This document shows, piece by piece, positions 26,457-56,266 of a stretch of DNA of 64,000 bases. The position numbers and the translations under genes are program-made. This DNA is from Alphaproteobacteria bacterium (GTDB taxonomy: Bacteria > Pseudomonadota > Alphaproteobacteria > UBA2966). The stretch is from assembly GCA_018650465.1 (NCBI GenBank), contig JABIFY010000103.1:13362-77361 (forward strand). Reading direction: 5' to 3'. A model generated the notes under the pieces. It was not told the origin of the DNA. It worked only from the letters and a program-made list of their open reading frames with translations, and ran no database searches. Position 1 is the stretch's first letter. Every line of letters starts with the position of its first letter.

Positions 26457-27431
26457 CTATCCGGCCAGAACCAGGATCGTCCATTCTTTCAGACATATCC
26501 GCTTTTCCAGACGAATGCCCTGGGCGGCATAGGCAGCCAGAACATAGCTTTCCTGGCGATCCAGTAGACCGGCCAGGACAACGCGCCCACCGGGCGCCAG
26601 GGATTTGCGGATATCCGGGGCCAGGCGTTTCAAGGGCCTGGCAAGGATATTGGCAAGGATCAGGTCATAGGGACCGCTGCCACGCAGCAGGGGGTGATCA
26701 AAGCCATCTCCGGCAACAAACTTTGTCAGGTCGGCCACGCGGTTCAGTTTGGCATAGTTATTGGCAAAATCTGCGGCAACCGGATCGATATCAATGCCCA
26801 CCACCGGCACCCGCCAGCGCTTGGCCGCGGCAAAAGACAAAATGCCTGAGCCTGCCCCCAGATCTGCAATTTTTTTAAAATTATGCCGCCGGGCCAGATC
26901 ATCCAGGGCCATCAGGCAGCCTTGTGTACTTTGATGATTGCCCGTGCCAAAGGCGCGTCCGGCGTCGATAATAATATCTATGGCCTGATGGCGCGGTACC
27001 ACTGGCTCATGCTGGCCATGTACATGGAAACGTCCAGCCCTCACTGGCGGATGACTGATCAAGGCGGCCTGCACCCAGTCAATACTCTCGACGGGTTCCA
27101 CAGTGATTTCAGGCAGATCAAATTCAAAGGCTGATGCCACCGGTGACAAGACGTCATTCAGGGCCGGGATACTCGGCTCGTCTGCACACAGGGCTTCAAT
27201 GCGCCACAAACGATCCGGTTTTTCTTCCGCATTGGGGTCCAGAGGCACGGTGGAGTAGGCTTCAATACCCGTGATCCAGTCGTCGGCTTCGTGACCGGGG
27301 GCACCCAGGGCTGGTCCCAGGATTTCTTCACAGGCATTCAAGGCGCGGGCTTGAACGGTCAGGCTGACGCGCCACAAACCCAGATCGTCGTCGCTGTCCT
27401 TGCTGAAATTCAGCAGCGATGTGTTACTCAT
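26457..27431 (-). CDS. prmA: Ribosomal protein L11 methyltransferase PrmA
   Basis: 324 aa; SAM-binding DLGAGSGILS motif; typical PrmA N-terminal domain. Confidence 0.85.
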   Translation of the reverse strand: MSNTSLLNFSKDSDDDLGLWRVSLTVQARALNACEEILGPALGAPGHEADDWITGIEAYSTVPLDPNAEEKPDRLWRIEALCADEPSIPALNDVLSPVASAFEFDLPEITVEPVESIDWVQAALISHPPVRAGRFHVHGQHEPVVPRHQAIDIIIDAGRAFGTGNHQSTQGCLMALDDLARRHNFKKIADLGAGSGILSFAAAKRWRVPVVGIDIDPVAADFANNYAKLNRVADLTKFVAGDGFDHPLLRGSGPYDLILANILARPLKRLAPDIRKSLAPGGRVVLAGLLDRQESYVLAAYAAQGIRLEKRICLKEWTILVLAG

Positions 27432-29728
27432 GCAGACTCCACAAACTGATCAATTACTTTTTTGGTACCGGCCTTGTCGAAGGAGATTTCCAGGCGATTG
27501 CCGGAAACGCTCAGGATAAGACCATAACCAAATTTCTGGTGAAAGACCCGCCCGCCCGGAGCAAAAGTTGACTCCGCACTATCTGTTTCCACGTGTTGCG
27601 CCTTGCCATCAATGACCATGCCATCATTATTTACACCGCGCCGGAACCGGCCTTTGCGCGCACCAAAGTCACCCGGAATATTGAAAGGGATAGCGGTGTC
27701 TTTGACTTCACTTTCATAGGCGTTTTCGCCACTGCCATAGACCCCCGCATCGGACAATACATCTATATGGTCTGGCGGCAGTTCATCAACAAAGCGGCTG
27801 GGCAGGTTTGCATTCCACTGGTTGAAGACCCGGCGATTGGCGGCGAAGGTTATGGTTGCCAGTTTGCGGGCGCGGGTTATGCCCACATGGGCAAGCCTGC
27901 GCTCTTCTTCCAGGGCCGTGGTGCCACCTTCATCCAGGGCACGTTGGTGGGGAAACAATCCTTCTTCCCAGCCAGGCAGGAACACAGCATCGAATTCCAG
28001 ACCTTTGGCCCCGTGCAGGGTCATCAGGGAAACCATTTCATCTGCCGAAGAATTTTCATTGTCCATCACAAGACTGACATGTTCCAGGTATTCGTCCAGA
28101 TTCTCAAATTCTTCCAGGGCGTGGATCAGTTCCTTCAGGTTCTCCAGACGGGTTGGCGCCTTGGGGTCTTTGTCGGCTTGCCACATGTCGGTATAGCCGC
28201 TTTCCTCCAGAATGGTTTCTACCAGATCGGGATGGGGCAGGTCAGCGCGGGTTTTGCGCCAGCGATCAAAGTTCTCCATCAGGGTCGCCAGACTGCGACG
28301 GGCCTGGGGGCGCAATTCATCTGTGGTGACGATTTCGGAAGCGGCCTGGGTTAGTGACATGCCGGCGTGGCGGGCATATTGCTGCACGGTTTGAAAAGCT
28401 TTGGTGCCCAGACTGCGCTTGGGCACGTTGAAAATACGTTCAAAAGCCAGATCATCGTCGGGCTGCACCAGAACCCTCAGGTAGGCATTGGCGTCGCGGA
28501 TTTCCTTGTTCTCGTAGAAGCGCTGGCCCCCGACGACCCGATAGGGCATGCCCAGCGACAAAAAACGCTCTTCAAATTCGCGGGTCTGGAAACTGGCGCG
28601 CACCAGAATGGCGATCTCATCCAGCGAGACCTTGCGGCTTTGCAGCAGCTCAATTTCTTCGGCCACGACGCGGGCTTCTTCGGCCCCGTCCCAGACGCCG
28701 CGCACGCGGACCTTTTCGCCCTCGTTGACTTGTGTCCACAAGGTCTTGCCCATGCGGCTTTCGTTTTTCGAAATAATGCCGGAGGCGGCGGCCAGAATAT
28801 GCGGGGTGGAGCGATAATTTTGCTCCAGGCGGATGACCTTTGCCCCTTCAAAATCCTTTTCAAAGCGCAATATATTGCCCACCTCAGCCCCGCGCCAGCC
28901 ATAGATGGACTGGTCGTCATCGCCGACGCAACAAATGTTGTGATGCTTCTGGGCCAACAGGCGCAGCCAGAGATATTGCGCCACGTTGGCGTCCTGATAC
29001 TCGTCGACCAGAATATATCGAAAGCGCTGCTGGTATTCGGCGAGGATATCACTGTGCTTGCGGAAGATAGTCAGACAATGCAGCAACAAATCGCCAAAAT
29101 CAGCGGCATTCAGCGCCACCAGGCGCTCCTGATAGGCCGCATACAATGCCTGCCCCTTGCCAAAGGCAAAATCCCCGGCGTCACTGGCTGTGACCCGGTC
29201 CGGTGTGTGGCCCTGGTCTTTCCAGCGGTCGATGATGGCGGCCAGATTACGGGCAGGGGCCTTTTTGTCATCAAGCCCCGCGGCCTCGATCACCTGTTTC
29301 ATCAGGCGGATCTGATCGTCCCGGTCCAGAATTGTGAAGTTGGGTTTCAGGCCCACCAGCTCGGCATGGCGTCGCAAAATGCGCACGCCCATGGCATGAA
29401 AAGTGCCCAGCCACAGGGATTCCACGGGTTGTTGCAGGGCGCTTTCCACCCGTTCCTTCATTTGCTTTGAGGCCTTGTTGGTAAAGGTCACGGCTAGCAC
29501 TTCATAGGGCCGCGCCCGGCCCGTGTGCAGGATGTGGGCCAGGCGCGTTGTCAGCACACGTGTCTTGCCCGTGCCCGCACCCGCCAACACCAGCACCGGC
29601 CCATCCACAGCCTCCACCGCCTCGCGCTGCACATCATTCAACCCGGCAAGATAAGGCGGCGGCCCGGCATCAGCGCCCCTCAAGGGTGTGGCAGGCTCAA
29701 AATCGGAAAGGTCAAAGGGATCGGACAT
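27428..29728 (-). CDS. uvrD: ATP-dependent DNA helicase UvrD/PcrA family (SF1)
   Basis: 766 aa; Walker A GAGTGKTRVL; helicase motifs throughout; 4-nt overlap with prmA start. Confidence 0.9.
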   Translation of the reverse strand: MSDPFDLSDFEPATPLRGADAGPPPYLAGLNDVQREAVEAVDGPVLVLAGAGTGKTRVLTTRLAHILHTGRARPYEVLAVTFTNKASKQMKERVESALQQPVESLWLGTFHAMGVRILRRHAELVGLKPNFTILDRDDQIRLMKQVIEAAGLDDKKAPARNLAAIIDRWKDQGHTPDRVTASDAGDFAFGKGQALYAAYQERLVALNAADFGDLLLHCLTIFRKHSDILAEYQQRFRYILVDEYQDANVAQYLWLRLLAQKHHNICCVGDDDQSIYGWRGAEVGNILRFEKDFEGAKVIRLEQNYRSTPHILAAASGIISKNESRMGKTLWTQVNEGEKVRVRGVWDGAEEARVVAEEIELLQSRKVSLDEIAILVRASFQTREFEERFLSLGMPYRVVGGQRFYENKEIRDANAYLRVLVQPDDDLAFERIFNVPKRSLGTKAFQTVQQYARHAGMSLTQAASEIVTTDELRPQARRSLATLMENFDRWRKTRADLPHPDLVETILEESGYTDMWQADKDPKAPTRLENLKELIHALEEFENLDEYLEHVSLVMDNENSSADEMVSLMTLHGAKGLEFDAVFLPGWEEGLFPHQRALDEGGTTALEEERRLAHVGITRARKLATITFAANRRVFNQWNANLPSRFVDELPPDHIDVLSDAGVYGSGENAYESEVKDTAIPFNIPGDFGARKGRFRRGVNNDGMVIDGKAQHVETDSAESTFAPGGRVFHQKFGYGLILSVSGNRLEISFDKAGTKKVIDQFVESA

Positions 29729-29835
29729 GTGTTGATTGGGGTATTTCTGGAATTGAGATTATTGGAGCTTGAAACCAGACGCAACGGTGCCTGTTTGACC
29801 GGAAACTACCCTATCCAATCGGCAATTCAAACTCT

Positions 29836-32800
29836 CTATTGCTTGAACAAACCCTTCAATAAGCCCTTCACAGCATCTTTTGCCTTCAAAGGCTGTTGCG
29901 GCTGTTGCTGGACAGGCTGCGCAGGCGGCTCGTTCGATGAGGGCTGTGGTTGTGTGGTGGGCTGTTGGTTGCCACCACTGGTTGGCAGCAACTGATCCAG
30001 ACCCTTGACCTTGTTACCGAGGAACTTGCGCACCAGGGTTTTGCCAACGCGGCTGGCCACATAGTTTTCCAGGTCACGGCTTTTGATATTGCGCCGGGGG
30101 TTATCCAGCGGGCCGCGCAGTTCCAGACCAATGGGCGGGGCTTTGGGGTGTTCGGTCAGGCGGAAGGTGGCGGCCATATCCAGGACCCAGCGCGGCAGGT
30201 CAATGACGGCGGTACCCGCACCGGCACCTGCTTCCAGGTCGGCCTTCAAATCATTGCTGCGAGCGACACCATTTTTGATGATGAAGTTGCCGCCGAGACT
30301 GGTGTAATTTGTCTGGCCACCGCTCATGGAGGACTGGATCAGATTTAGAAAATCGCGGGTCCGGTCCAGTTCAGTCATATTGGCACTCAGGCGTTTCAGG
30401 TCGACACCCTTGACGATACCGCTTTCCGAGGAAAATGACGTCGTGCCCGAGAGCCTGGAGACCATGTCGCGCTGGCTGTGGCCACGGGTGGCAAACTTGC
30501 CATCAATGCGCACAGTGCCGGTGGCGGCATCGATCTGGGCCGCTTCCATCAAGGCTTTTTTCAGGTTACCGCCGGTGACAGCCAGGGCCAGATCAACGGC
30601 AGGGACCTGATCATCCGCAACACGGGCCGACAGGGTTACCTCGCCATCGAATAATTTGCCGCGCAAAGGATCGATGCGCAGGACACCGTCTTTCAAAATG
30701 GCGGTCACACTGGGCTGCACAAACTGATAAGTGCCATAAATAATGCCAGGGGCCGTCAGGCTGATATTCATGTCGGCACTGCGCAAGGCACTGAGGTCAA
30801 TGGGGTCGGATGACCAGCGTTCAACGCCTTTGCCTGAAGAATTGCTGGCGGCACCCGAACCAGCGCCCCCGCCGTTCGAGCTTCGCGGCAAGAAAAGATC
30901 AACAAAGATTTCACTGGTCTGCAATTCGGCCGCAATGGACGGACGCTGTCCCGCAAAGGATGCGGCTGCCGTGCCCTTCAACGCGAGGGGGCCAAAATTA
31001 CCCTTCAAATTTTTAATGCCGATGGTTTGAGCATCACCGGAAAGGTCGGCCTGCAAGGTGAGGGCGCCAAAGTTTCGCCCCGCCGGGGTGTAATCAACGC
31101 CCAGGCCCCGCAAAAACCCGGTTGCACTGGGGTGCCCTGCGGACAGGGCGAGGGTAAAGCCGGGTCCGGCCAGCGGCTTCAGTTTGCCGGCCGCCGTAAT
31201 TCGGGATTTCCCTAAACCAACCTTCAGGTCCACGTTAACCACACTCAGATCACCAGCGATCTTGCCGGTCAGGCCAAGCGGGCCGTCTTCGCCGCCGGGG
31301 GCCAGGTGAAATGATGGATCAAATGTTTGCCACAAGGTGACGTAGCTTTTGTTACTGGCCTTGATACCAAGATCAAGGCGGGGGCCGGCACCATCCATGG
31401 CCACATTGCCCTTTAGCGCCGTTGAGGTGCGCGCTGCCAAAATTGTCAGGTCAACCGCAATGGCCTCGCCACTGCCTTTGATGTGACCTGCCGCATGAAA
31501 TTTGCCAAGTTTTGAGGCCGGAACTGGCAGCGTAATACCAACCAGGCGCGTCAGGCCCTGAACATTGTCTGCCTGTAGGTCAAGCCTGCCATCGACAACC
31601 GGTTTGCTATCCAGGCCGCTGGCCTTGCCCTGAAAGGCGAATTTGGCGCCGCCCAGATCGTCAGTGCGAATATTGCGCACGGTAAGTTCGCCGGCCATCA
31701 GCCCCACATCAATCAAGGCACCTTTGATGGAAACGCCATTGGCGGTGAACTTCTTGACGGCCAATTTCAAATTCGCATCAAAGCTGTTCAGCATTTCAGC
31801 CGCATCAGGCGGTAATCTGCCAAACTGCGGTGCCATCAAGGCACCGGTTGCTGCCTTGGGCTTTTCCGCTGTTGCCTGCTTTTTTTGGTAAACATCCAGG
31901 TTCAGCTGGTCGACTTCAAAATCCACACTGAAGGCAGGGCGCTTGCGAAAGGCATAGGCCGCACCGCCGGTCAGGTTTGTGGAATCCAGACGCAGATCGA
32001 TGCCATAGACTTCAGCCAGTTTTGGTGTGGCCCGCACCGTGGCTGACAAGGAAGAAGAGCGCAGGCGATCCGACGGCACACTGGAGATATCGGCACCAAC
32101 CCAGTCGAGAAAGCCACGTAGATTATCAGCTGAGGCCCGCACAGCCCCTTCAAATTGCGGCAGATTGTTTTTGGCCTGAATATTACCAACCAGATCAACA
32201 TTTGCCCCGCCCGGCAAATGGGCGGCGATCTTTTCAATATTCACGATGCTCTTGGAAATGGATGCGACGGCTTCGACCTGGCGAATGGCGCTGCCTTTCC
32301 AGGTAATACCACTGACGGTCAGGGCTGCGGTGCCTGAAACGTCAGACGGAATGGCAAAGGCGGCGGCATCTTTTGTTGTCGCCGTCGCTGCAGTATTGGC
32401 TGAAGATGGTTTTTCCGGTGCAGATTGCAGCCAGGTATCCATGTTCACCCGGTTGACGTCCAGGGCCAGATCAATGTTCAGGGCATTAGCAAAATCAACC
32501 GAGATCGCACCCGCCGCCGTTGTTTCGCCAATTTTGGTGACGATATTGTTGAAAGCGGCAGATTTGGCGCTGGCCTCCAGATCGCCGTTGAGGGACAGCT
32601 TTTGCTTGAGCGCTGGCAATTCCGGTATTTCAGAGCCGATAACCGGCTTCAGGGCCTGGATCAGGGTCAGGGCATCAGGGGCGGCGACTGCCAGCTTGCC
32701 CTTCAGGGTACCATCCGCACTGGCCTGGCTCAGGCTGCCTTTGAAGGACAGGGTGCCGGCCCCATTGGCCAGACCCAGGGCCAGATTGAGCGGTAGGGGC

Positions 32801-33432
32801 CCACCGGTATTCAGGGCACCTGTTGTGAGATCAAATGTTGTTGTCAGTTTGCGGGCCGTCAGGCGACCGGTTGCCTTGAAGGGGCCTTGCAAGGATCCAG
32901 CAGACAGTTTGGCGCTTAAACCTTCGACGGTTTGATTTGTCCCGGATTTGGCATCGATATAGCTGAGTTTGGCATCTTCGATGACCAGGCTATCGAGGCT
33001 GAGGTCAGTACTGCCTTCGCTGTCGCTGCTACTGCTGCTGCCGCCGGTACTAAAATCGTAATTAGCCTTGCCGTCGGCACTGACTTCAATGGAAATTACC
33101 GGCTTCGAGACCCGGACGCGCTTGATCTGGATTTCACCGCTTAACAAGGGGATCAGGGCAACGTCGACTTCCAGCTTGCCGATTGTGACCATCTCGGGTG
33201 CCGATGCACCCTTCATGTTGGCCAGGCGTAATCGACTGACTTGCAAGGCTGGTGTGGGCAGGATCGTAAAGCCGATGTCACCGTCAATGGCCAACCGCCG
33301 ACCTGTGGCTTCCTGCGCCCTGGCTGTGATTTCAGATTTGTAGTCGTTCCAGTTAATAAAGCCAGGGACCACCAGGGCCGCCCCAAGTGCCAGGATAACC
33401 AGACCAACGACGATAAATAACGCCTTTTTCAC
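29836..33432 (-). CDS. AsmA-family outer-membrane biogenesis protein (giant, 1198 aa) with Pro/Gln-rich C-terminal tail
   Basis: GTG start with AAAGAGG RBS; N-terminal TM anchor and AsmA-like N-domain; C-terminal QPQPSSNEPPAQPVQQQPQQP low-complexity tail. Confidence 0.8.
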   Translation of the reverse strand: MKKALFIVVGLVILALGAALVVPGFINWNDYKSEITARAQEATGRRLAIDGDIGFTILPTPALQVSRLRLANMKGASAPEMVTIGKLEVDVALIPLLSGEIQIKRVRVSKPVISIEVSADGKANYDFSTGGSSSSSDSEGSTDLSLDSLVIEDAKLSYIDAKSGTNQTVEGLSAKLSAGSLQGPFKATGRLTARKLTTTFDLTTGALNTGGPLPLNLALGLANGAGTLSFKGSLSQASADGTLKGKLAVAAPDALTLIQALKPVIGSEIPELPALKQKLSLNGDLEASAKSAAFNNIVTKIGETTAAGAISVDFANALNIDLALDVNRVNMDTWLQSAPEKPSSANTAATATTKDAAAFAIPSDVSGTAALTVSGITWKGSAIRQVEAVASISKSIVNIEKIAAHLPGGANVDLVGNIQAKNNLPQFEGAVRASADNLRGFLDWVGADISSVPSDRLRSSSLSATVRATPKLAEVYGIDLRLDSTNLTGGAAYAFRKRPAFSVDFEVDQLNLDVYQKKQATAEKPKAATGALMAPQFGRLPPDAAEMLNSFDANLKLAVKKFTANGVSIKGALIDVGLMAGELTVRNIRTDDLGGAKFAFQGKASGLDSKPVVDGRLDLQADNVQGLTRLVGITLPVPASKLGKFHAAGHIKGSGEAIAVDLTILAARTSTALKGNVAMDGAGPRLDLGIKASNKSYVTLWQTFDPSFHLAPGGEDGPLGLTGKIAGDLSVVNVDLKVGLGKSRITAAGKLKPLAGPGFTLALSAGHPSATGFLRGLGVDYTPAGRNFGALTLQADLSGDAQTIGIKNLKGNFGPLALKGTAAASFAGQRPSIAAELQTSEIFVDLFLPRSSNGGGAGSGAASNSSGKGVERWSSDPIDLSALRSADMNISLTAPGIIYGTYQFVQPSVTAILKDGVLRIDPLRGKLFDGEVTLSARVADDQVPAVDLALAVTGGNLKKALMEAAQIDAATGTVRIDGKFATRGHSQRDMVSRLSGTTSFSSESGIVKGVDLKRLSANMTELDRTRDFLNLIQSSMSGGQTNYTSLGGNFIIKNGVARSNDLKADLEAGAGAGTAVIDLPRWVLDMAATFRLTEHPKAPPIGLELRGPLDNPRRNIKSRDLENYVASRVGKTLVRKFLGNKVKGLDQLLPTSGGNQQPTTQPQPSSNEPPAQPVQQQPQQPLKAKDAVKGLLKGLFKQ

Positions 33433-49977: not shown

Positions 49978-50215
49978 GACTTCACTCACTGAATTGTCCG
50001 TTTTGACCATGATGATGGTTTTCAAATTCCTCTGCCCTGGCAAACATGGGAACAGCTTCATTTCATTTGTACCGAAATCAAAAAAATTTGAACCTGGCGA
50101 TTATCTTGTGTTTGTTTCGAATTGATGGAAAACCCTCCTCTATTAATCTCTTCCAATTCGCGTTATTCTATTGATACAACGGGTCTTTTTACTATCGACC
50201 GGAAAGGACAGAAAA

Positions 50216-51841
50216 TTGCAATCACCTCTTGATGCATCAGCAAATACTGTCGCTGAACTATTTTCAAAATCAACATTCGTAATTCCTCAATATCAACGTG
50301 AGTATTCATGGCGGGCTGATGAGGTCGAAGATTTTTGGACGGATCTCCAGAACACCTTGGATTTAGATAATTATTTTCTAGGATTGATAATTCTTACTGA
50401 TGACAACGGCGAGAAGCATGTTGTTGATGGACAGCAGCGTATCGTAACGCTCACATTGTTAGCCAATGCAATCTATCATGAAGCAATCGCTCGTAATCGA
50501 AAAGCGTTGGCAGATAGAATTTGGGCGGATTTTTTAAGATCAATCGATTATGAGACGGACGACATAAACCCTCGAGTTGTATTAGCAGATCAGACAGATA
50601 ATGATACTTTTCAGCAGATAATAGAGACGGGGGAAGTACCTGAAAACATAAAAGACACAGAATCGGTCTCTTATCTAATTGCCAATTCATATAAGGTGCT
50701 GAAAGAATTCTTGGCCTCGGACCTCAAGTCCGACCCTTTCAAAAGACTAGGCAAGTGGACGGAGTTTTTAACAAATCGAGTCTATTTTGCCGTTTTTGTG
50801 CACCCTGACGCAGCTACTGCATATAAGGTCTTCGAAATTATCAATACTCGAGGGCGTGGACTAACAACGGCAGATCTTCTCAAGAACTACGTTCTTGGCC
50901 AAACCCCCAAAATGCAGCGGGACGAAATCTACAAACGTTGGCGTGATATGGCAAAATCCTTCACTGTTGAAGGCTCAAGCAACGTATTTGTTCAGTTTAT
51001 TAGACACGCAGTGACCGTCGGAAGTGGACACATTCTCCCACAAGAATTATTTGGATTCCTTGCTCAGCGGCAGCGGTATTCAAGGAAATCACCGCCAGTC
51101 CCACTGGCCTTGGTCGACACATTAGAGGGTTTTCACTCTCTTTATTTGCAAATGATTGACCCAACAATATCGGGCCCAGCAGAAGGTTATGCTCTAAGGG
51201 TCTTCGAAGCCTTAAATGAAATTGGCGTTATCGCGGTTCGGCCTATTTTGTTGGCGCTTAATGGACAACAAGAAAATGAAAAAGGTTGTGATTATATCCT
51301 TCGTTTGGTTGTCAGAAGAATTGTTGTTGGAAGCCTGGGTACAGGTAATATCGAACGGCGGTTTTCTGAGGCGGCTCGCGATGTCCACGAAACCGGCAAT
51401 TGGACGGTGCTACAAGATAGTTTGGATGACTTGAATCCGTCTCGCGATGATTTCGTCAATCGCTTGTCAAGCAGGACGATCAACAAAGCCACATTAACGT
51501 TTCTCCGCCGGTCAATTCTTCAAGGTTCGGTAACTCCAGAACCGCAGGGCACTTTACATCTGATATGGCCCAGAAATACAGATAGTTGGGACGGAATGGA
51601 CGTTGAGACCGACTTGAAATGGGTATCCACAGTTGGTAATACGATTTTATCTGATTTGCATAAGCGGCCGAAAGAAGCCTCAATCGATTTCCAAAATTTC
51701 AAATACAGTCTTCTAGAAAATGGGGTCGATAATGAGTGGGCTGAGCAGATCAATCAAAGAGATGACTGGACAGCTGTCGAAATTCAAAAATTGGGCGAAG
51801 AGCTTGCTGAATCTGCAGGAGACCTTTGGTATGGCGGGTAG
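50216..51841 (+). CDS. DUF262 (ParB-like nuclease/NTPase) + DUF1524 (His-Me finger) fusion protein, GmrSD/BrxU-like putative restriction/defense enzyme
   Basis: QYQREYSW and VVDGQQRIVTL DUF262 motifs; C-terminal LHLIWP...VGNTIL...N...F..K DUF1524-like; TTG start 50216 with AAGGA RBS (alternative TTG 50171); low GC. Confidence 0.78.
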   Translation: MQSPLDASANTVAELFSKSTFVIPQYQREYSWRADEVEDFWTDLQNTLDLDNYFLGLIILTDDNGEKHVVDGQQRIVTLTLLANAIYHEAIARNRKALADRIWADFLRSIDYETDDINPRVVLADQTDNDTFQQIIETGEVPENIKDTESVSYLIANSYKVLKEFLASDLKSDPFKRLGKWTEFLTNRVYFAVFVHPDAATAYKVFEIINTRGRGLTTADLLKNYVLGQTPKMQRDEIYKRWRDMAKSFTVEGSSNVFVQFIRHAVTVGSGHILPQELFGFLAQRQRYSRKSPPVPLALVDTLEGFHSLYLQMIDPTISGPAEGYALRVFEALNEIGVIAVRPILLALNGQQENEKGCDYILRLVVRRIVVGSLGTGNIERRFSEAARDVHETGNWTVLQDSLDDLNPSRDDFVNRLSSRTINKATLTFLRRSILQGSVTPEPQGTLHLIWPRNTDSWDGMDVETDLKWVSTVGNTILSDLHKRPKEASIDFQNFKYSLLENGVDNEWAEQINQRDDWTAVEIQKLGEELAESAGDLWYGG

Positions 51842-52661
51842 TCCTGACGCCGACTTAGACGACGGATCCGATTTCACACGACTAATAAAAGTGCTTAACC
51901 GTGAGGAAAACATAGATGCGCTTTCGCCGTTGATCGCTGCGATTGGCGACGAGGCTGAAGAAATTGAATTTTCCAATACAGCTATTGGTATCGATACGAA
52001 TATCTTACTGAAGTTATCGAAAAGAAAAGAAGCTGAGGATGTTTTCGACTATTTGGGATCAAACCATCAGCCTCCATTGATACTACCAGGCCAAGCTGTT
52101 CAAGAATTTTGGAATAACCAGCTTAACGCGATCCAAACTCGAGCCGATAAGCTTGCTAGAAAATTTGAAGATTTCTCAGATGAACTGGATAAATTTGGCG
52201 AAGATTTTGGAGACTTTGCGCCAGTGATTAAAGAGAAATTGAATGTTTTCTCAGCGGAACATGGTCACATTTTTGATAAAGCGACAATTCACAAAACACT
52301 TAAGCTATTGGAAGTCTTAAAAGAAAAATCGTCAGTGCCATTTGTGCCTAGAAGCGCATTCAAGGAAATCGTAGAAATAAGGTTTAGCACCAAAACGCCA
52401 CCGGGATTTAAAGATGACGGAGACGGGGATTTTTTTATTTGGGCTGATTTCCTCTATGGCTTGAAGGCAGCACAATCAGAAGGAACGAATTTCACTCGGG
52501 CCGTTCTCGTAACTGATGACAAGAAACCTGATTGGAGCCGAAAGGGAAGGGCACATCCAATTCTTGTTTCGGAGGCACAGGCCTATTTAGGTGTGCCATT
52601 TGAGTTATGGTCGCAAGACAAACTAATAGCTGAAGTGGAAAAGTCCACGTCGAGTGAATAA
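51831..52661 (+). CDS. PIN-like domain protein (DUF4935-like), partner of the DUF262/DUF1524 gene
   Basis: ORF 51720..52661 trimmed to ATG 51831 (11-nt overlap with upstream gene); GIDTNILLKL and VLVTDDKK acidic PIN motifs flanking a helical insert; low GC. Confidence 0.62.
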   Translation: MAGSPDADLDDGSDFTRLIKVLNREENIDALSPLIAAIGDEAEEIEFSNTAIGIDTNILLKLSKRKEAEDVFDYLGSNHQPPLILPGQAVQEFWNNQLNAIQTRADKLARKFEDFSDELDKFGEDFGDFAPVIKEKLNVFSAEHGHIFDKATIHKTLKLLEVLKEKSSVPFVPRSAFKEIVEIRFSTKTPPGFKDDGDGDFFIWADFLYGLKAAQSEGTNFTRAVLVTDDKKPDWSRKGRAHPILVSEAQAYLGVPFELWSQDKLIAEVEKSTSSE

Positions 52662-52903
52662 CCCTTGACTAGTCTTATATTTATTCTTGGACAGGGCGAA
52701 ACCGAATGCAATTTCCTTTCCCCATTGTTTTCAAAATGTGTCCATGAACAAAACAAGGACCTAGCAGAATACACAGAATCTTTGAATTAGTTGGTTGTAG
52801 GGACACGATTCTTTTTCGAAGTGGAAAAAGTCATGTCCCCGTAATTCTGTGTAAAGGAACAGCAAAGACGTGGGTACTCGGGTCAAGCCCGAGCATGACG
52901 GGG

Positions 52904-54986: not shown

Positions 54987-55523
54987 TTATTTCTTGCGAA
55001 AATGGTCGAGTTCGACAACGTCGGCAGAAACGAGGGCGGAGTCTTCATCAGGCTCGCTCATGTGCGACGCGTTATCGTCCTGGCCTGAGGACCCGTCAAA
55101 TTCCACGGACATGCCCGGGGTCGTCATGTTGGCATCTTCCATCTCGCCGTCTTCGACCGTTTTGAACTGCAAACCAAACTGCACACTGGGATCAGCAAAG
55201 CCGGTGATCGCCATCCATGGCACGTTGAGGAATTCGCGATTGTTGTTGAAACTGAGCATCACCGAAAAGCCGATATCGGTAATTTCCAGGTCCCAGAATT
55301 CATGCTGCAAAACGATGGTGATTTCTTCCGGATACCGGGCCCGCAAACTGTCGGGCATGATGACGCCGGGAAAACCCGAGAGGAAAGAAATATAAAAATG
55401 ATGCTCACCAGGCAGGCCATTTTCAGCCACACGTTCCAACGATTCGCGCACGACACCTTTCAGCGCCTGTTCGACGATCTCGTTATAGTTCATGTAGTCC
55501 GTGGATGTTGTGTCGTCAGTCAT
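54987..55523 (-). CDS. sspB: ClpXP adaptor SspB (stringent starvation protein B, alpha-proteobacterial type)
   Basis: 178 aa; conserved HHFYISF...EFWDL core, acidic C-terminal tail ending in basic ClpX-binding-like peptide. Confidence 0.8.
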   Translation of the reverse strand: MTDDTTSTDYMNYNEIVEQALKGVVRESLERVAENGLPGEHHFYISFLSGFPGVIMPDSLRARYPEEITIVLQHEFWDLEITDIGFSVMLSFNNNREFLNVPWMAITGFADPSVQFGLQFKTVEDGEMEDANMTTPGMSVEFDGSSGQDDNASHMSEPDEDSALVSADVVELDHFRKK

Positions 55524-55699: not shown

Positions 55700-56075
55700 G
55701 CTTGGCAAATGCTACTTGATTGTTCGGCAAATGCCACATAATAACGAGGAAAGTGAGGGGCTTCTGTTGCCAGGTGCCCCTCGAACCCCGTGGACTCAGC
55801 TGTTAAGCTGCGACCGCAAATGCTTGACGATTGTCATTTGCATTTGTAGTGATTGACCCGGTAACGGCGGAATCATGCCGAACGAAAAATATACTTTTAC
55901 TGTGCACGTCGATCCTGTTTCGCCCCCATCAAATATAGATTCCAGAATTTAAATTACTGTTTGAATCCAACAGTTTGAATCTATATGTGGTGGAGGCGCC
56001 GGGTACCGCCCCCGGGTCCGCAACACCTATTCTGTAGACCGTTTATCGCCATAGTCGGTTGCCCGACGCCTTCTA
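55700..56075 (-). ncRNA. ssrA: Two-piece (circularly permuted) tmRNA gene ssrA: acceptor piece ending ...CGCCTCCACCA at 55988, 60-nt excised hairpin segment, coding piece starting GGGGGCG at 55927 with tag ORF 55841-55803 (ANDNRQAFAVAA-TAA); outer ends approximate (+/-30 nt)
   Basis: Tag reading frame GCA AAT GAC AAT CGT CAA GCA TTT GCG GTC GCA GCT TAA on minus strand; 5' GGGGGCG pairs with CGCCTCC (G3:U70) followed by ACCA; permuted order typical of alphaproteobacteria. Confidence 0.72.
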
Positions 56076-56266
56076 TATAGGGATTTTTGGCGGAAAATGG
56101 AAGGGAATTAGCGGGGTTCAGATTTCGCATTATTCCAATGAAAAACGAAACCGCGTTAATTTCAATAAATCCCGATTTAGACACAACATGTAGTGGCCAT
56201 GCCGGTACCGGCCCGCTATATTGTCCCTCCTTTCTGGATGATTTTTGTGCTGATACGAGGGTTCCC

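Follow-up and report, generated by a model that had tools for sequence, protein, structure and literature searches.

GmrSD-like proteins such as GmrSD, BrxU, SspE, DndI and HEC-06 are treated as self-contained enzymes that combine a sensor with a nuclease. In GmrSD, BrxU, SspE and DndI the C-terminal His-Me finger is an active nuclease or nickase, and the N541A exchange in DndI led to greatly reduced nicking and the loss of phage protection. HEC-06 is a stand-alone, single-gene protein with a defence-essential EHxxP motif, whose anti-phage protection requires both DGQQR and E471/H472 (Payne et al., bioRxiv 10.1101/2024.01.29.577857). That functions can be split in this family has precedents in GrwAB and TgvAB from Vibrio cholerae, the latter called a similar two-gene GmrSD-like system in the GrwAB paper, as both genes are needed in these operons (PMC12137116, PMC11411939). 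The partner in GrwAB is a second DUF262 protein, and the DUF1524 domain of GrwA is active with H431, N521 and N530 being essential (PMC12137116); in both HEC-06 and GrwA, one exchange at a canonical His-Me position is enough to remove nuclease activity or defence or to lower them strongly (10.1101/2024.01.29.577857; PMC12137116). In Menshen (NsnABC), NsnA is a DUF262 protein without active DUF1524 and has been proposed as the sensor, whereas NsnC contains a PIN-like domain; the system requires the ABC-type ATPase NsnB, and its PIN-like domains lack catalytic activity and occur as fusions with further effector domains (PMC12065111). PIN effectors are also found in HEC-03, paired with an ABC ATPase (bioRxiv 10.1101/2024.01.29.577857), and the PIN protein PcrIIC1 has been solved in complex with Cas9 (PDB 8wmm).

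The window analysed here, by which we mean the whole stretch of 64,000 nucleotides, harbours a two-gene islet that probably represents a two-component, as yet undescribed variant of this known phage-defence family. Its features are:

50000..52900, no strand: two-gene islet of ~2.9 kb with low GC, ORF1 and ORF2 being its sole genes
50216..51841, + strand: ORF1, 541-aa GmrSD-like, HEC-06-related protein with DUF262 NTPase, helical linker and degenerate His-Me finger
50249..50893, + strand: DUF262/ParB-like NTPase domain of ORF1 (Pfam PF03235, envelope aa 12-226, 2.3e-37)
50426-50440, + strand: D71-G-Q-Q-R75 motif of ORF1
51548..51682, + strand: degenerate His-Me finger of ORF1 (aa 445-489), L447-H448-L449-I-W-P452 ... 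G474-N475 ... K483-R484-P-K
51831..51841, + strand: overlap of 11 nt between ORF1 stop and ORF2 start, read from the sequence; translational coupling
51831..52661, + strand: ORF2, 276-aa PIN_8 nuclease with a three-helix insert and putative catalytic D55, E92, D200 and D230 (plus D234)

An earlier sequence-only reading had placed both genes at these positions with the same overlap, and these, together with the motifs it quoted, are all present: QYQREYSW (aa 24-31), VVDGQQRIVTL (aa 69-79), LHLIWPRN (aa 447-454) and VGNTILSDLHKRPKEASIDFQNFK in ORF1, and GIDTNILLKL (aa 53-62) and AVLVTDDKK in ORF2. The ORF1 frame is open from TTG 50171, but a start at TTG 50216 is supported by the consensus of the homologues (MQTPLNAS...) and by a database protein of 541 aa with identical sequence (P0121). 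ORF1 ends with TAG at 51839-51841, and an AGGAG at 51817-51821 lies 9 nt 5' of the ORF2 start codon (ATG 51831; end of the stop codon at 52661). A consensus promoter is absent from the 50062-50215 spacer.

Both QREYSW and DGQQR of ORF1 are located within the DUF262 domain, where Q27, R28, E29, Y30, W32 and V69-R75 are invariant and F/Y-E-x-I-N-T-R-G is conserved among 46 homologues. DGQQR is retained in all 34 full-length representatives of the ORF1 clade (sampled at 50% identity), and ORF1 was positive in the DUF262 test of the GmrSD family (QR, DGQQR and FxxxN motifs). Pfam GmrSD_C/DUF1524 (PF07510) gave no match to ORF1 even at E ≤ 1, nor to its Rhizobium orthologue, and four ORF1 relatives without a PIN partner match this model at 1e-24 to 1e-29. 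From the DUF262+DUF1524 fusion proposed earlier, the DUF262 domain and an overall GmrSD-like fold could be confirmed, but not a Pfam DUF1524 match; judged by its sequence, ORF1 is no bona fide DUF262+DUF1524 nuclease, as the DUF1524 signature is gone. Neither ORF1 nor ORF2 was matched in NCBIfam. All four PADLOC HEC-06 models matched ORF1 over its full length, with PDLC04157 being the best (4.5e-79, 264 bits), so that annotation pipelines may well name it HEC-06. The ORF1 clade reached 222-264 bits with these models, in comparison to 570-800 bits for four out of a set of six canonical relatives; the remaining two scored best, with ~640 bits, against an Orf5 model. As 264 bits is far below the range of 570-800 bits, ORF1 belongs to a sister clade of HEC-06 and is not a core member. 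Both share full-length homology, the layout of DUF262, linker and C-terminal domain, a length of ~540-560 aa and the DGQQR motif, whereas the ORF1 clade shows H-L/F instead of the EHxxP motif, has no metal-binding Asn and no Pfam GmrSD_C match, and carries a PIN_8 gene downstream in all 22 loci examined. Menshen, Dazbog and PD-T4-2, which are further DUF262 systems, were ruled out, as PADLOC gave no match to ORF2, the best ORF1 matches are all to HEC-06, Orf5 and SspE, and no ATPase gene is present.

Alignment of the ORF1 profile with 37 canonical relatives by hhalign (Prob 100, E 1e-70, 524 columns) set the canonical E473-H474 opposite H448-L449 of ORF1, and the canonical N509, equivalent to DndI N541, opposite a gap adjoining R484, with GN alone surviving from the canonical His-Me residues. 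HMMER comparison with DndI (9jfl) led to the identical register. Position 449 is F, L, Y or W in 113 of 121 close ORF1 homologues, with F being the most frequent in place of the Leu of ORF1, Arg is found at 484 in 28/34 clade representatives, and none of the 34 has an acidic residue plus His dyad at the motif; the test for the catalytic (D/E)-H ... N ... N signature of the GmrSD family was negative for ORF1. The sequence-only reading, which had described LH in place of D/E-H, was therefore one residue out: His stands at the acidic position and Leu/Phe at that of the catalytic His, and a reading in which Leu replaces D/E with His being kept was ruled out by MAFFT, HMMER and hhalign, all setting His448 opposite the acidic residue. 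That the motif is changed was correct, but it is more than varied (E to H, H to L/F, Asn lost), and the nuclease active site of ORF1 has probably been lost while its NTPase motifs stayed intact. G474-N475 is conserved in the clade, with GN475 being invariant, E464 and E507 are nearly invariant, and His448 is kept in about two-thirds of the clade, which makes a non-canonical active site of ORF1 possible. ORF1 could then still be an active, non-canonical type IV nuclease with the PIN protein as obligatory accessory (second nuclease, specificity factor or anti-anti-defence factor), and besides these residues the conservation of the whole GmrSD fold and the requirement for both proteins in GrwAB and TgvAB would agree with this. 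Nevertheless, we regard it as unlikely, since the catalytic His position is occupied by Leu/Phe and the metal-binding Asn position by a gap/Arg, His448 itself is replaced (Q/K/S/Y/I/V/E) in 11 of the 34 representatives, and single mutations at the canonical positions already cripple HEC-06, DndI and GrwA.

ORF2 matched Pfam PIN_8 (PF18476) with 65.9 bits (E 6.4e-18; gathering cut-off 26.1), and its database homologues are already annotated with PF18476. With DUF4935/PIN_12 (PF16289), the family named in the sequence-only reading, it stayed just below the threshold (31.6 bits, cut-off 32), indicating that ORF2 is related to this family but is better described as PIN_8; its PIN-like nature as such was borne out by the PIN_8 match, the fold and the conserved acidic residues. 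A fold search confirmed the PIN fold (Rossmann-like alpha/beta/alpha) with many VapCs among the structural neighbours. D55 lies at the end of beta1 and D230 after the AVLVT strand. D55, E92, D200, D230 and D234 are invariant in 16 PIN partners of 25-51% identity, suggesting a PIN site under selection with an intact predicted four-acid active site. Additionally, ORF2 has an insert of ~65 aa forming three helices (aa ~104-166) and an N-terminal extension of ~48 aa. A PDB sequence search based on the ORF2 profile returned nothing but spurious coiled-coil matches, which stemmed from the helical insert, and none of the PADLOC models matched ORF2. The PIN fold and acidic active site resemble those of VapC-type toxins, HEC-03B and PcrIIC1; unlike these, ORF2 is a Pfam PIN_8 protein with helical insert, N-terminal extension and a GmrSD-like partner. 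Unlike in Menshen, its acidic residues are kept, it is unmatched in PADLOC, and the islet contains no ATPase gene. In comparison to GrwAB/TgvAB, ORF2 is a PIN_8 protein without DUF262, and ORF1 as the sole DUF262 protein appears to have a dead His-Me site. From GmrSD, BrxU, SspE and DndI the pair differs in that ORF1 has other residues at the catalytic positions and is genetically linked to a separate PIN nuclease.

Both genes were found adjacent in 22 of 22 independent loci from Alpha-, Beta- and Gammaproteobacteria as well as Actinomycetota, mostly with overlapping reading frames, and the pair is kept even with ORF1 homologues of only 32-36% identity, the lowest in the set being 32%. Analysis of 14 junctions revealed overlaps of 8-17 nt in ten and gaps of 1-10 nt in four cases. 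Pairwise identities of the ORF1 and ORF2 proteins co-vary (r=0.93), and homologues of each number in the hundreds. Among plasmids, the three records with an ORF2 homologue are the same three that encode an ORF1 homologue of at least 42% identity, whereas 11 other full-length ORF1 relatives (≤25.5% identity) occur without PIN_8. Full-length canonical relatives that carry the E-H motif have no PIN partner; the ORFs that follow the Listeria and Natrinema relatives on the same strand had no Pfam match, giving no sign of a cryptic PIN protein in canonical relatives, and that from Listeria had no PADLOC match either. The pairing is far beyond chance and the linkage obligate, in agreement with the dedicated, translationally coupled pair that had been proposed from the window.

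Tight translational coupling with a putative inhibitor gene upstream is also expected for a toxin-antitoxin or addiction module, in which ORF1 would hold a VapC-like RNase in check and the islet would be stabilised, or the cell killed on infection, with no sensing of modification. Among type II toxins the PIN domain is the most common, VapCs are among the structural neighbours of ORF2, and the pair is found on plasmids and mobile elements. The arrangement differs, however, from the VapBC layout of a ~70-100 aa DNA-binding antitoxin and a ~130-aa PIN protein: upstream lies the gene for an NTPase of 541 aa whose catalytic motifs are strictly conserved, and not one for a small, labile DNA-binding protein, and the PIN protein is, at 276 aa, about twice the size of VapC and has a helical insert and an extra N-terminal region. 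Moreover, in two loci (L012 and L014) the ORF1 homologue is split but the PIN frame is still open, and an active toxin freed in this way would not be easily tolerated. The toxin/antitoxin-like alternative, already mentioned in the sequence-only reading, gained no specific support and appears rather improbable to us.

The islet shows a GC content of 0.38-0.47 vs 0.52-0.62 on either side and is flanked by housekeeping genes (a luciferase-domain protein, RHH_4 and a class I fumarate hydratase). When its flanks were searched for direct repeats, tRNA and integrase genes, none were found; around the islet only short chance repeats and no att-like repeats were detected, and the only tRNA-like gene was a tmRNA 3 kb off with housekeeping genes between, so that no integration mechanism can be assigned. 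No dnd or ssp modification genes are located near the pair in the window. Elsewhere, the pair adjoins a DpnII R-M system on pTi6.2 and, on a plasmid from Rhodococcus, genes for a DNA methyltransferase and a helicase together with an IS3 element. Hachiman (HamA/HamB) matches were obtained among the flanking genes of related loci and, judged by size, correspond to the two genes that follow the pair in a Pseudomonas locus (L006). In Roseovarius the pair is cargo of an integrase/Prim-Pol/GP3_package element, and in Stutzerimonas it lies at the edge of a Zot/CoatB prophage. ORF1 also matched the prophage family phrog_21165 at 7e-139. In INPHARED and IMG/VR no ORF2 homologue and only distant, canonical phage relatives of ORF1 were detected; carriage by sequenced virions is thus not shown, despite the adjoining prophage and satellite-like elements. 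The expected setting in defence islands was observed in part, with R-M, Hachiman or mobile neighbours at some loci and a solitary islet amid housekeeping genes, outside defence islands, in the window and several others. Taken together, these settings agree with a mobile or defence role. That the pair is merely horizontally mobile and serves DNA repair, partition or RNA processing, as its housekeeping neighbours and the occurrence of ParB-like and PIN domains in housekeeping proteins might suggest, is very improbable given the patchy spread across phyla, the composition of the islet being atypical for the host, the R-M, Hachiman and integrase/prophage contexts, and the closest characterised relatives all being defence proteins.

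Our preferred reading, to which we assign a probability of roughly 60%, is that the cassette is a two-component module against phages or mobile elements, derived from single-protein GmrSD/HEC-06 type IV enzymes, with ORF1 as sensor and the PIN protein as effector. ORF1 would keep the ParB-like DUF262 NTPase and the GmrSD fold, minus the catalytic His and metal ligands, and as these are missing it is most likely an NTP-driven sensor or regulator of nucleic acids and not a nuclease. ORF2, co-translated from the overlapping frame, would be the predicted PIN nuclease supplying cleavage of DNA or RNA in trans. The trigger may be foreign DNA, possibly base-modified, upon recognition of which ORF1 presumably recruits or licenses ORF2, perhaps through physical interaction. 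More speculatively, and with considerable doubt from our side, the GmrSD scaffold could have turned into a pure sensor that depends on NTP, recognises foreign and possibly hypermodified DNA, and activates a PIN RNase acting in trans. If true, sensing of DNA modification would lead to an abortive-infection or RNA-targeting output and not to restriction of the invader DNA, a mode of action undescribed for the GmrSD family.

A pair of the ORF1-ORF2 type was not described in the literature we found, which covered few papers from subscription journals, so that this absence is no proof. The earlier statement that the pair is not a named system is consistent with this and with the lack of a PADLOC model for ORF2, but has to be modified as ORF1 alone matches the HEC-06 models. 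With a label such as 'HEC-06' or 'DUF262 domain-containing protein', neither the obligatory partner nor the apparently dead active site would be noticed. In the ORF1 clade the sensor half seems to be retained, the nuclease inactivated and a separate PIN effector substituted. The pair may therefore represent a natural separation-of-function system, suited to learn what DUF262 plus linker senses and how activation is passed on. With hundreds of clusters (90% identity) in public sequence data and a wide spread over Proteobacteria and Actinomycetota, it also joins the candidate two-gene defence modules.

Both genes were found where the sequence-only reading had placed them, and every motif quoted there could be retrieved:

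50216-51841, + strand: ORF1, 541-aa GmrSD-like protein; start TTG 50216, stop TAG 51839-51841 (start backed by the database protein P0121 and by a consensus of homologues, stop read from the sequence)
51831-52661, + strand: ORF2, 276-aa PIN_8 protein; start ATG 51831, end 52661 (read from the sequence)

The longest ORF1 reading frame begins earlier, at TTG 50171; the start at TTG 50216 is backed by the identical 541-aa P0121 and by the consensus MQTPLNAS... of homologues. From the ORF2 ATG and the ORF1 stop, the two genes therefore overlap by 11 nt, and AGGAG lies upstream of this ATG at 51817-51821.

ORF1 had been described as a DUF262/DUF1524 nuclease. Pfam analysis confirmed the DUF262 part (GmrSD_N, aa 12-226, 2.3e-37), and no Pfam match to GmrSD_C/DUF1524 was obtained even at E<=1. 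Over its full length ORF1 matched PADLOC models of HEC-06 (best 4.5e-79, 264 bits), followed by 'Orf5' and SspE models, indicating that the entire GmrSD-like fold is kept, with both helical linker and C-terminal domain present. An hhalign comparison of 46 close ORF1 homologues with 37 canonical relatives from a 50%-identity representative library (PIN-less full-length GmrSD-like proteins of the HEC-06/Orf5 type with an intact E-H motif) led to a probability of 100%, an E value of 1.2e-70 and 524 aligned columns. In this alignment the canonical L, E473, H474 (the catalytic His), I, P477 and G499-N500 correspond to ORF1 L447, H448, L449 (Phe in most homologues), I450, P452 and G474-N475, respectively, and the invariant N509 falls into a gap beside K483-R484. 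The identical register resulted from HMMER against DndI (PDB 9JFL) and from MAFFT, so that the earlier assignment of LH in place of D/E-H was one residue off. By alignment, His takes the place of the acidic metal ligand and Leu/Phe that of the general-base His, and the helix Asn has no counterpart. This Asn is the equivalent of DndI N541, and in N541A nicking is greatly reduced and phage protection gone. That ORF1 is an atypical yet active nuclease, with the PIN protein as an accessory, is unlikely, as residues equivalent to those replaced or lost are essential in HEC-06 (E471, H472; bioRxiv 10.1101/2024.01.29.577857) and GrwA (H431, N521, N530; PMC12137116). Among 34 full-length 50%-identity representatives of the ORF1 clade, none carries the acid-His dyad at the His-Me motif; 11 have even His448 replaced, 28 show Arg at position 484, and all 34 retain DGQQR. 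Such a pattern suggests that NTPase and scaffold have been kept and the nuclease site abandoned. An E-H dyad is also missing from another set of remote ORF1 relatives (~30% identity; P0291, P0303, P0312, P0316, P0326, P0327, P0329, P0344, P0367-P0369 and P0384), which has a different signature (e.g. VPVVPRR, LPIVPRR, VRVAPRR) and no helix Asn, suggesting that a further GmrSD-like lineage lost its His-Me site independently.

ORF2 matched Pfam PIN_8 (6.4e-18; 65.9 bits, cut-off 26.1), and neither NCBIfam nor the PADLOC models gave a match. The PIN core is supplemented by a three-helix insert (aa ~104-166) and an N-terminal extension of ~48 residues. Across 55 close homologues, E92, D200 and D234 show no variation and D55 is retained in 90% or more; among 16 partners taken from the loci (25-51% identity to ORF2), D55, E92, D195, D200, D206, D230, D234 and E248 are invariant throughout. 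The placement of D55 (end of beta-1) and D230 (just after the AVLVT strand) fits a PIN catalytic centre. Of the former description as PIN-like (DUF4935-like), the PIN assignment is borne out by the Pfam match and these acidic residues, and the PIN_12/DUF4935 score fell marginally below its threshold.

The suspected pairing recurs across genera, with homologues of both genes adjacent at 22 independent loci, a total that counts four with ORF1 homologues of only 32-36% identity. The others include loci in Bradyrhizobium; at eight genome loci including Pseudomonas, Kaistia, an Acidimicrobiaceae bacterium and Gordonia; on Rhizobium rhododendri pTi6.2 and a Rhodococcus plasmid and in Nonomuraea; and in Roseovarius, Stutzerimonas, a Dongiaceae bacterium and two further assemblies. 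Each ORF2 homologue placeable in a genome has a same-strand ORF1 homologue directly upstream, with the sole exception of L010 (6001-6525, Bradyrhizobium MAG), a lone 3' PIN fragment without ORF1, and a PIN_8 gene immediately follows even the four distant ORF1 homologues. The genes overlap by 8-17 nt at 10 of 14 junctions and are 1-10 nt apart at the other four. Between loci, the pairwise identities of ORF1 and of ORF2 homologues rise and fall together (r = 0.93, 14 loci), consistent with inheritance as a unit, and among the best 120 matches for each protein 38 agree exactly in the size of the longest contig. At L012 (4343-5960, Alphaproteobacteria MAG) and L014 (8001-9616, Rhodococcus DMF-1 plasmid), two separate ORFs take the place of an intact ORF1 homologue, and the PIN frame has stayed open; together with L010 these show signs of decay of some copies. 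The open PIN frames argue mildly against ORF1 as a simple antitoxin, and a toxin-antitoxin-like module appears quite improbable.

Among PLSDB plasmids, an ORF2 homologue occurs in three records, and these same three are the only ones to carry an ORF1 homologue at >=42% identity; PIN_8 was not found with the eleven remaining full-length ORF1 relatives (<=25.5% identity). Four tested PIN-less plasmid relatives showed Pfam GmrSD_C (1e-24 to 1e-29) and the canonical EH...GN...N motif. When six canonical relatives were scanned with PADLOC, four reached 570-800 bits against HEC-06 models and two ~640 bits against an Orf5 model (~255-280 against HEC-06), compared with HEC-06 scores of 264 bits for ORF1 and 222 bits for its homologue P0280; the PIN-linked proteins are therefore a sister clade of HEC-06 proper rather than core members. 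Uncharacterised same-strand ORFs follow canonical PIN-less relatives of the HEC-06/Orf5 type in Listeria (L018, 5205-6032, 275 aa; no match in Pfam or PADLOC) and Natrinema (L016, 5282-6439, 385 aa; no match in Pfam).

In the window, GC content is 0.38-0.47 over 50000-52900 and 0.52-0.62 to either side. The neighbours (a luciferase-domain protein, an RHH_4 protein, class I fumarate hydratase, SspB, tmRNA, ThyX and purine nucleoside phosphorylase) and the remaining content (dcw cell-division cluster, NAD-dependent DNA ligase, UvrD-type helicase) identify the pair as a solitary two-gene islet in the core genome; a search around it for att-like repeats, an integrase or a neighbouring tRNA was negative. 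The two-piece (permuted) alphaproteobacterial tmRNA gene (55712-56106, - strand, tag peptide ANDNRQAFAVAA) adjoins sspB (54987-55523) ~3 kb from the islet and, not being adjacent to it, is not evidently an integration site. The UvrD/Rep-type housekeeping helicase (26460-33432 region and others) cross-matches many PADLOC GajB models (best 9e-111) and an RTasHel model. Gabija requires a GajA partner, and GajA was absent among 25 of the 50 PADLOC families matched in the window; the GajB match is likely a false positive for automated defence annotation.

Elsewhere, informative surroundings are mobile or defence-related. On pTi6.2 a DpnII-type R-M system lies upstream and an AAA ATPase downstream; the Rhodococcus plasmid carries a CHAT protein, a DNA methyltransferase, a helicase and an IS3 element nearby; and in Pseudomonas (L006) the two genes 3' of the pair were assigned by size to Hachiman (HamA/HamB) matches from pooled flanking genes of related loci. 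In Roseovarius the pair occupies the cargo position of an integrase/HTH_17/Prim-Pol/GP3_package element, and in Stutzerimonas it sits at the edge of a Zot/CoatB filamentous prophage. Three alphaproteobacterial genomes, unrelated to one another, have it directly 3' of guaA (GMP synthase; L001 2587-4257, L004 2773-4320, L025 1669-3216), which suggests a recurrent insertion hot spot. ORF1 matched prophage family phrog_21165 (7e-139), and searches of sequenced phage genomes and IMG/VR contigs turned up no copy of the pair. At several loci, including the one in the window, the pair is a plain islet among housekeeping genes and does not lie inside a defence island. A non-defence role seems very remote.

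We favour, with a probability of about 0.6, a module for defence against phages or other mobile DNA, in which ORF1 would act as an NTP-driven sensor and regulator after loss of its nuclease function and ORF2 as the effector nuclease, supplied in stoichiometric amounts via translational coupling and presumably in physical contact with ORF1. The PIN substrate may be DNA (restriction-like) or RNA (abortive infection-like); modified DNA, by analogy with GmrSD, BrxU and HEC-06, is a tentative candidate for the trigger. HEC-06, the closest known family, is a validated single-gene GmrSD-like defence with an essential EH motif (bioRxiv 10.1101/2024.01.29.577857), and the ORF1 clade lacks both of these features. 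From GmrSD sensu stricto, ORF1 differs by the missing Pfam DUF1524 match and catalytic residues, with the fold kept. GrwAB/TgvAB likewise split the GmrSD-like family over two genes; in these systems a second DUF262 protein serves as partner and one DUF1524 stays active (PMC12137116), whereas here the partner is PIN_8 and ORF1 is without the DUF1524 catalytic residues. In Menshen, too, a DUF262 sensor works with a PIN-like protein; this system additionally requires an ABC ATPase, and the PIN-like domains in it are inactive and joined to other effectors as fused modules (PMC12065111). In line with the sequence-only reading, which knew no named system of this kind, a literature search of incomplete coverage, by which absence is not proven, gave no description of a DUF262/dead-HNH and PIN_8 pair. 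The pair is a clear, widespread and testable effector replacement within a well-studied defence family, and it would represent a new principle only if the PIN output were RNA-directed abortive infection.
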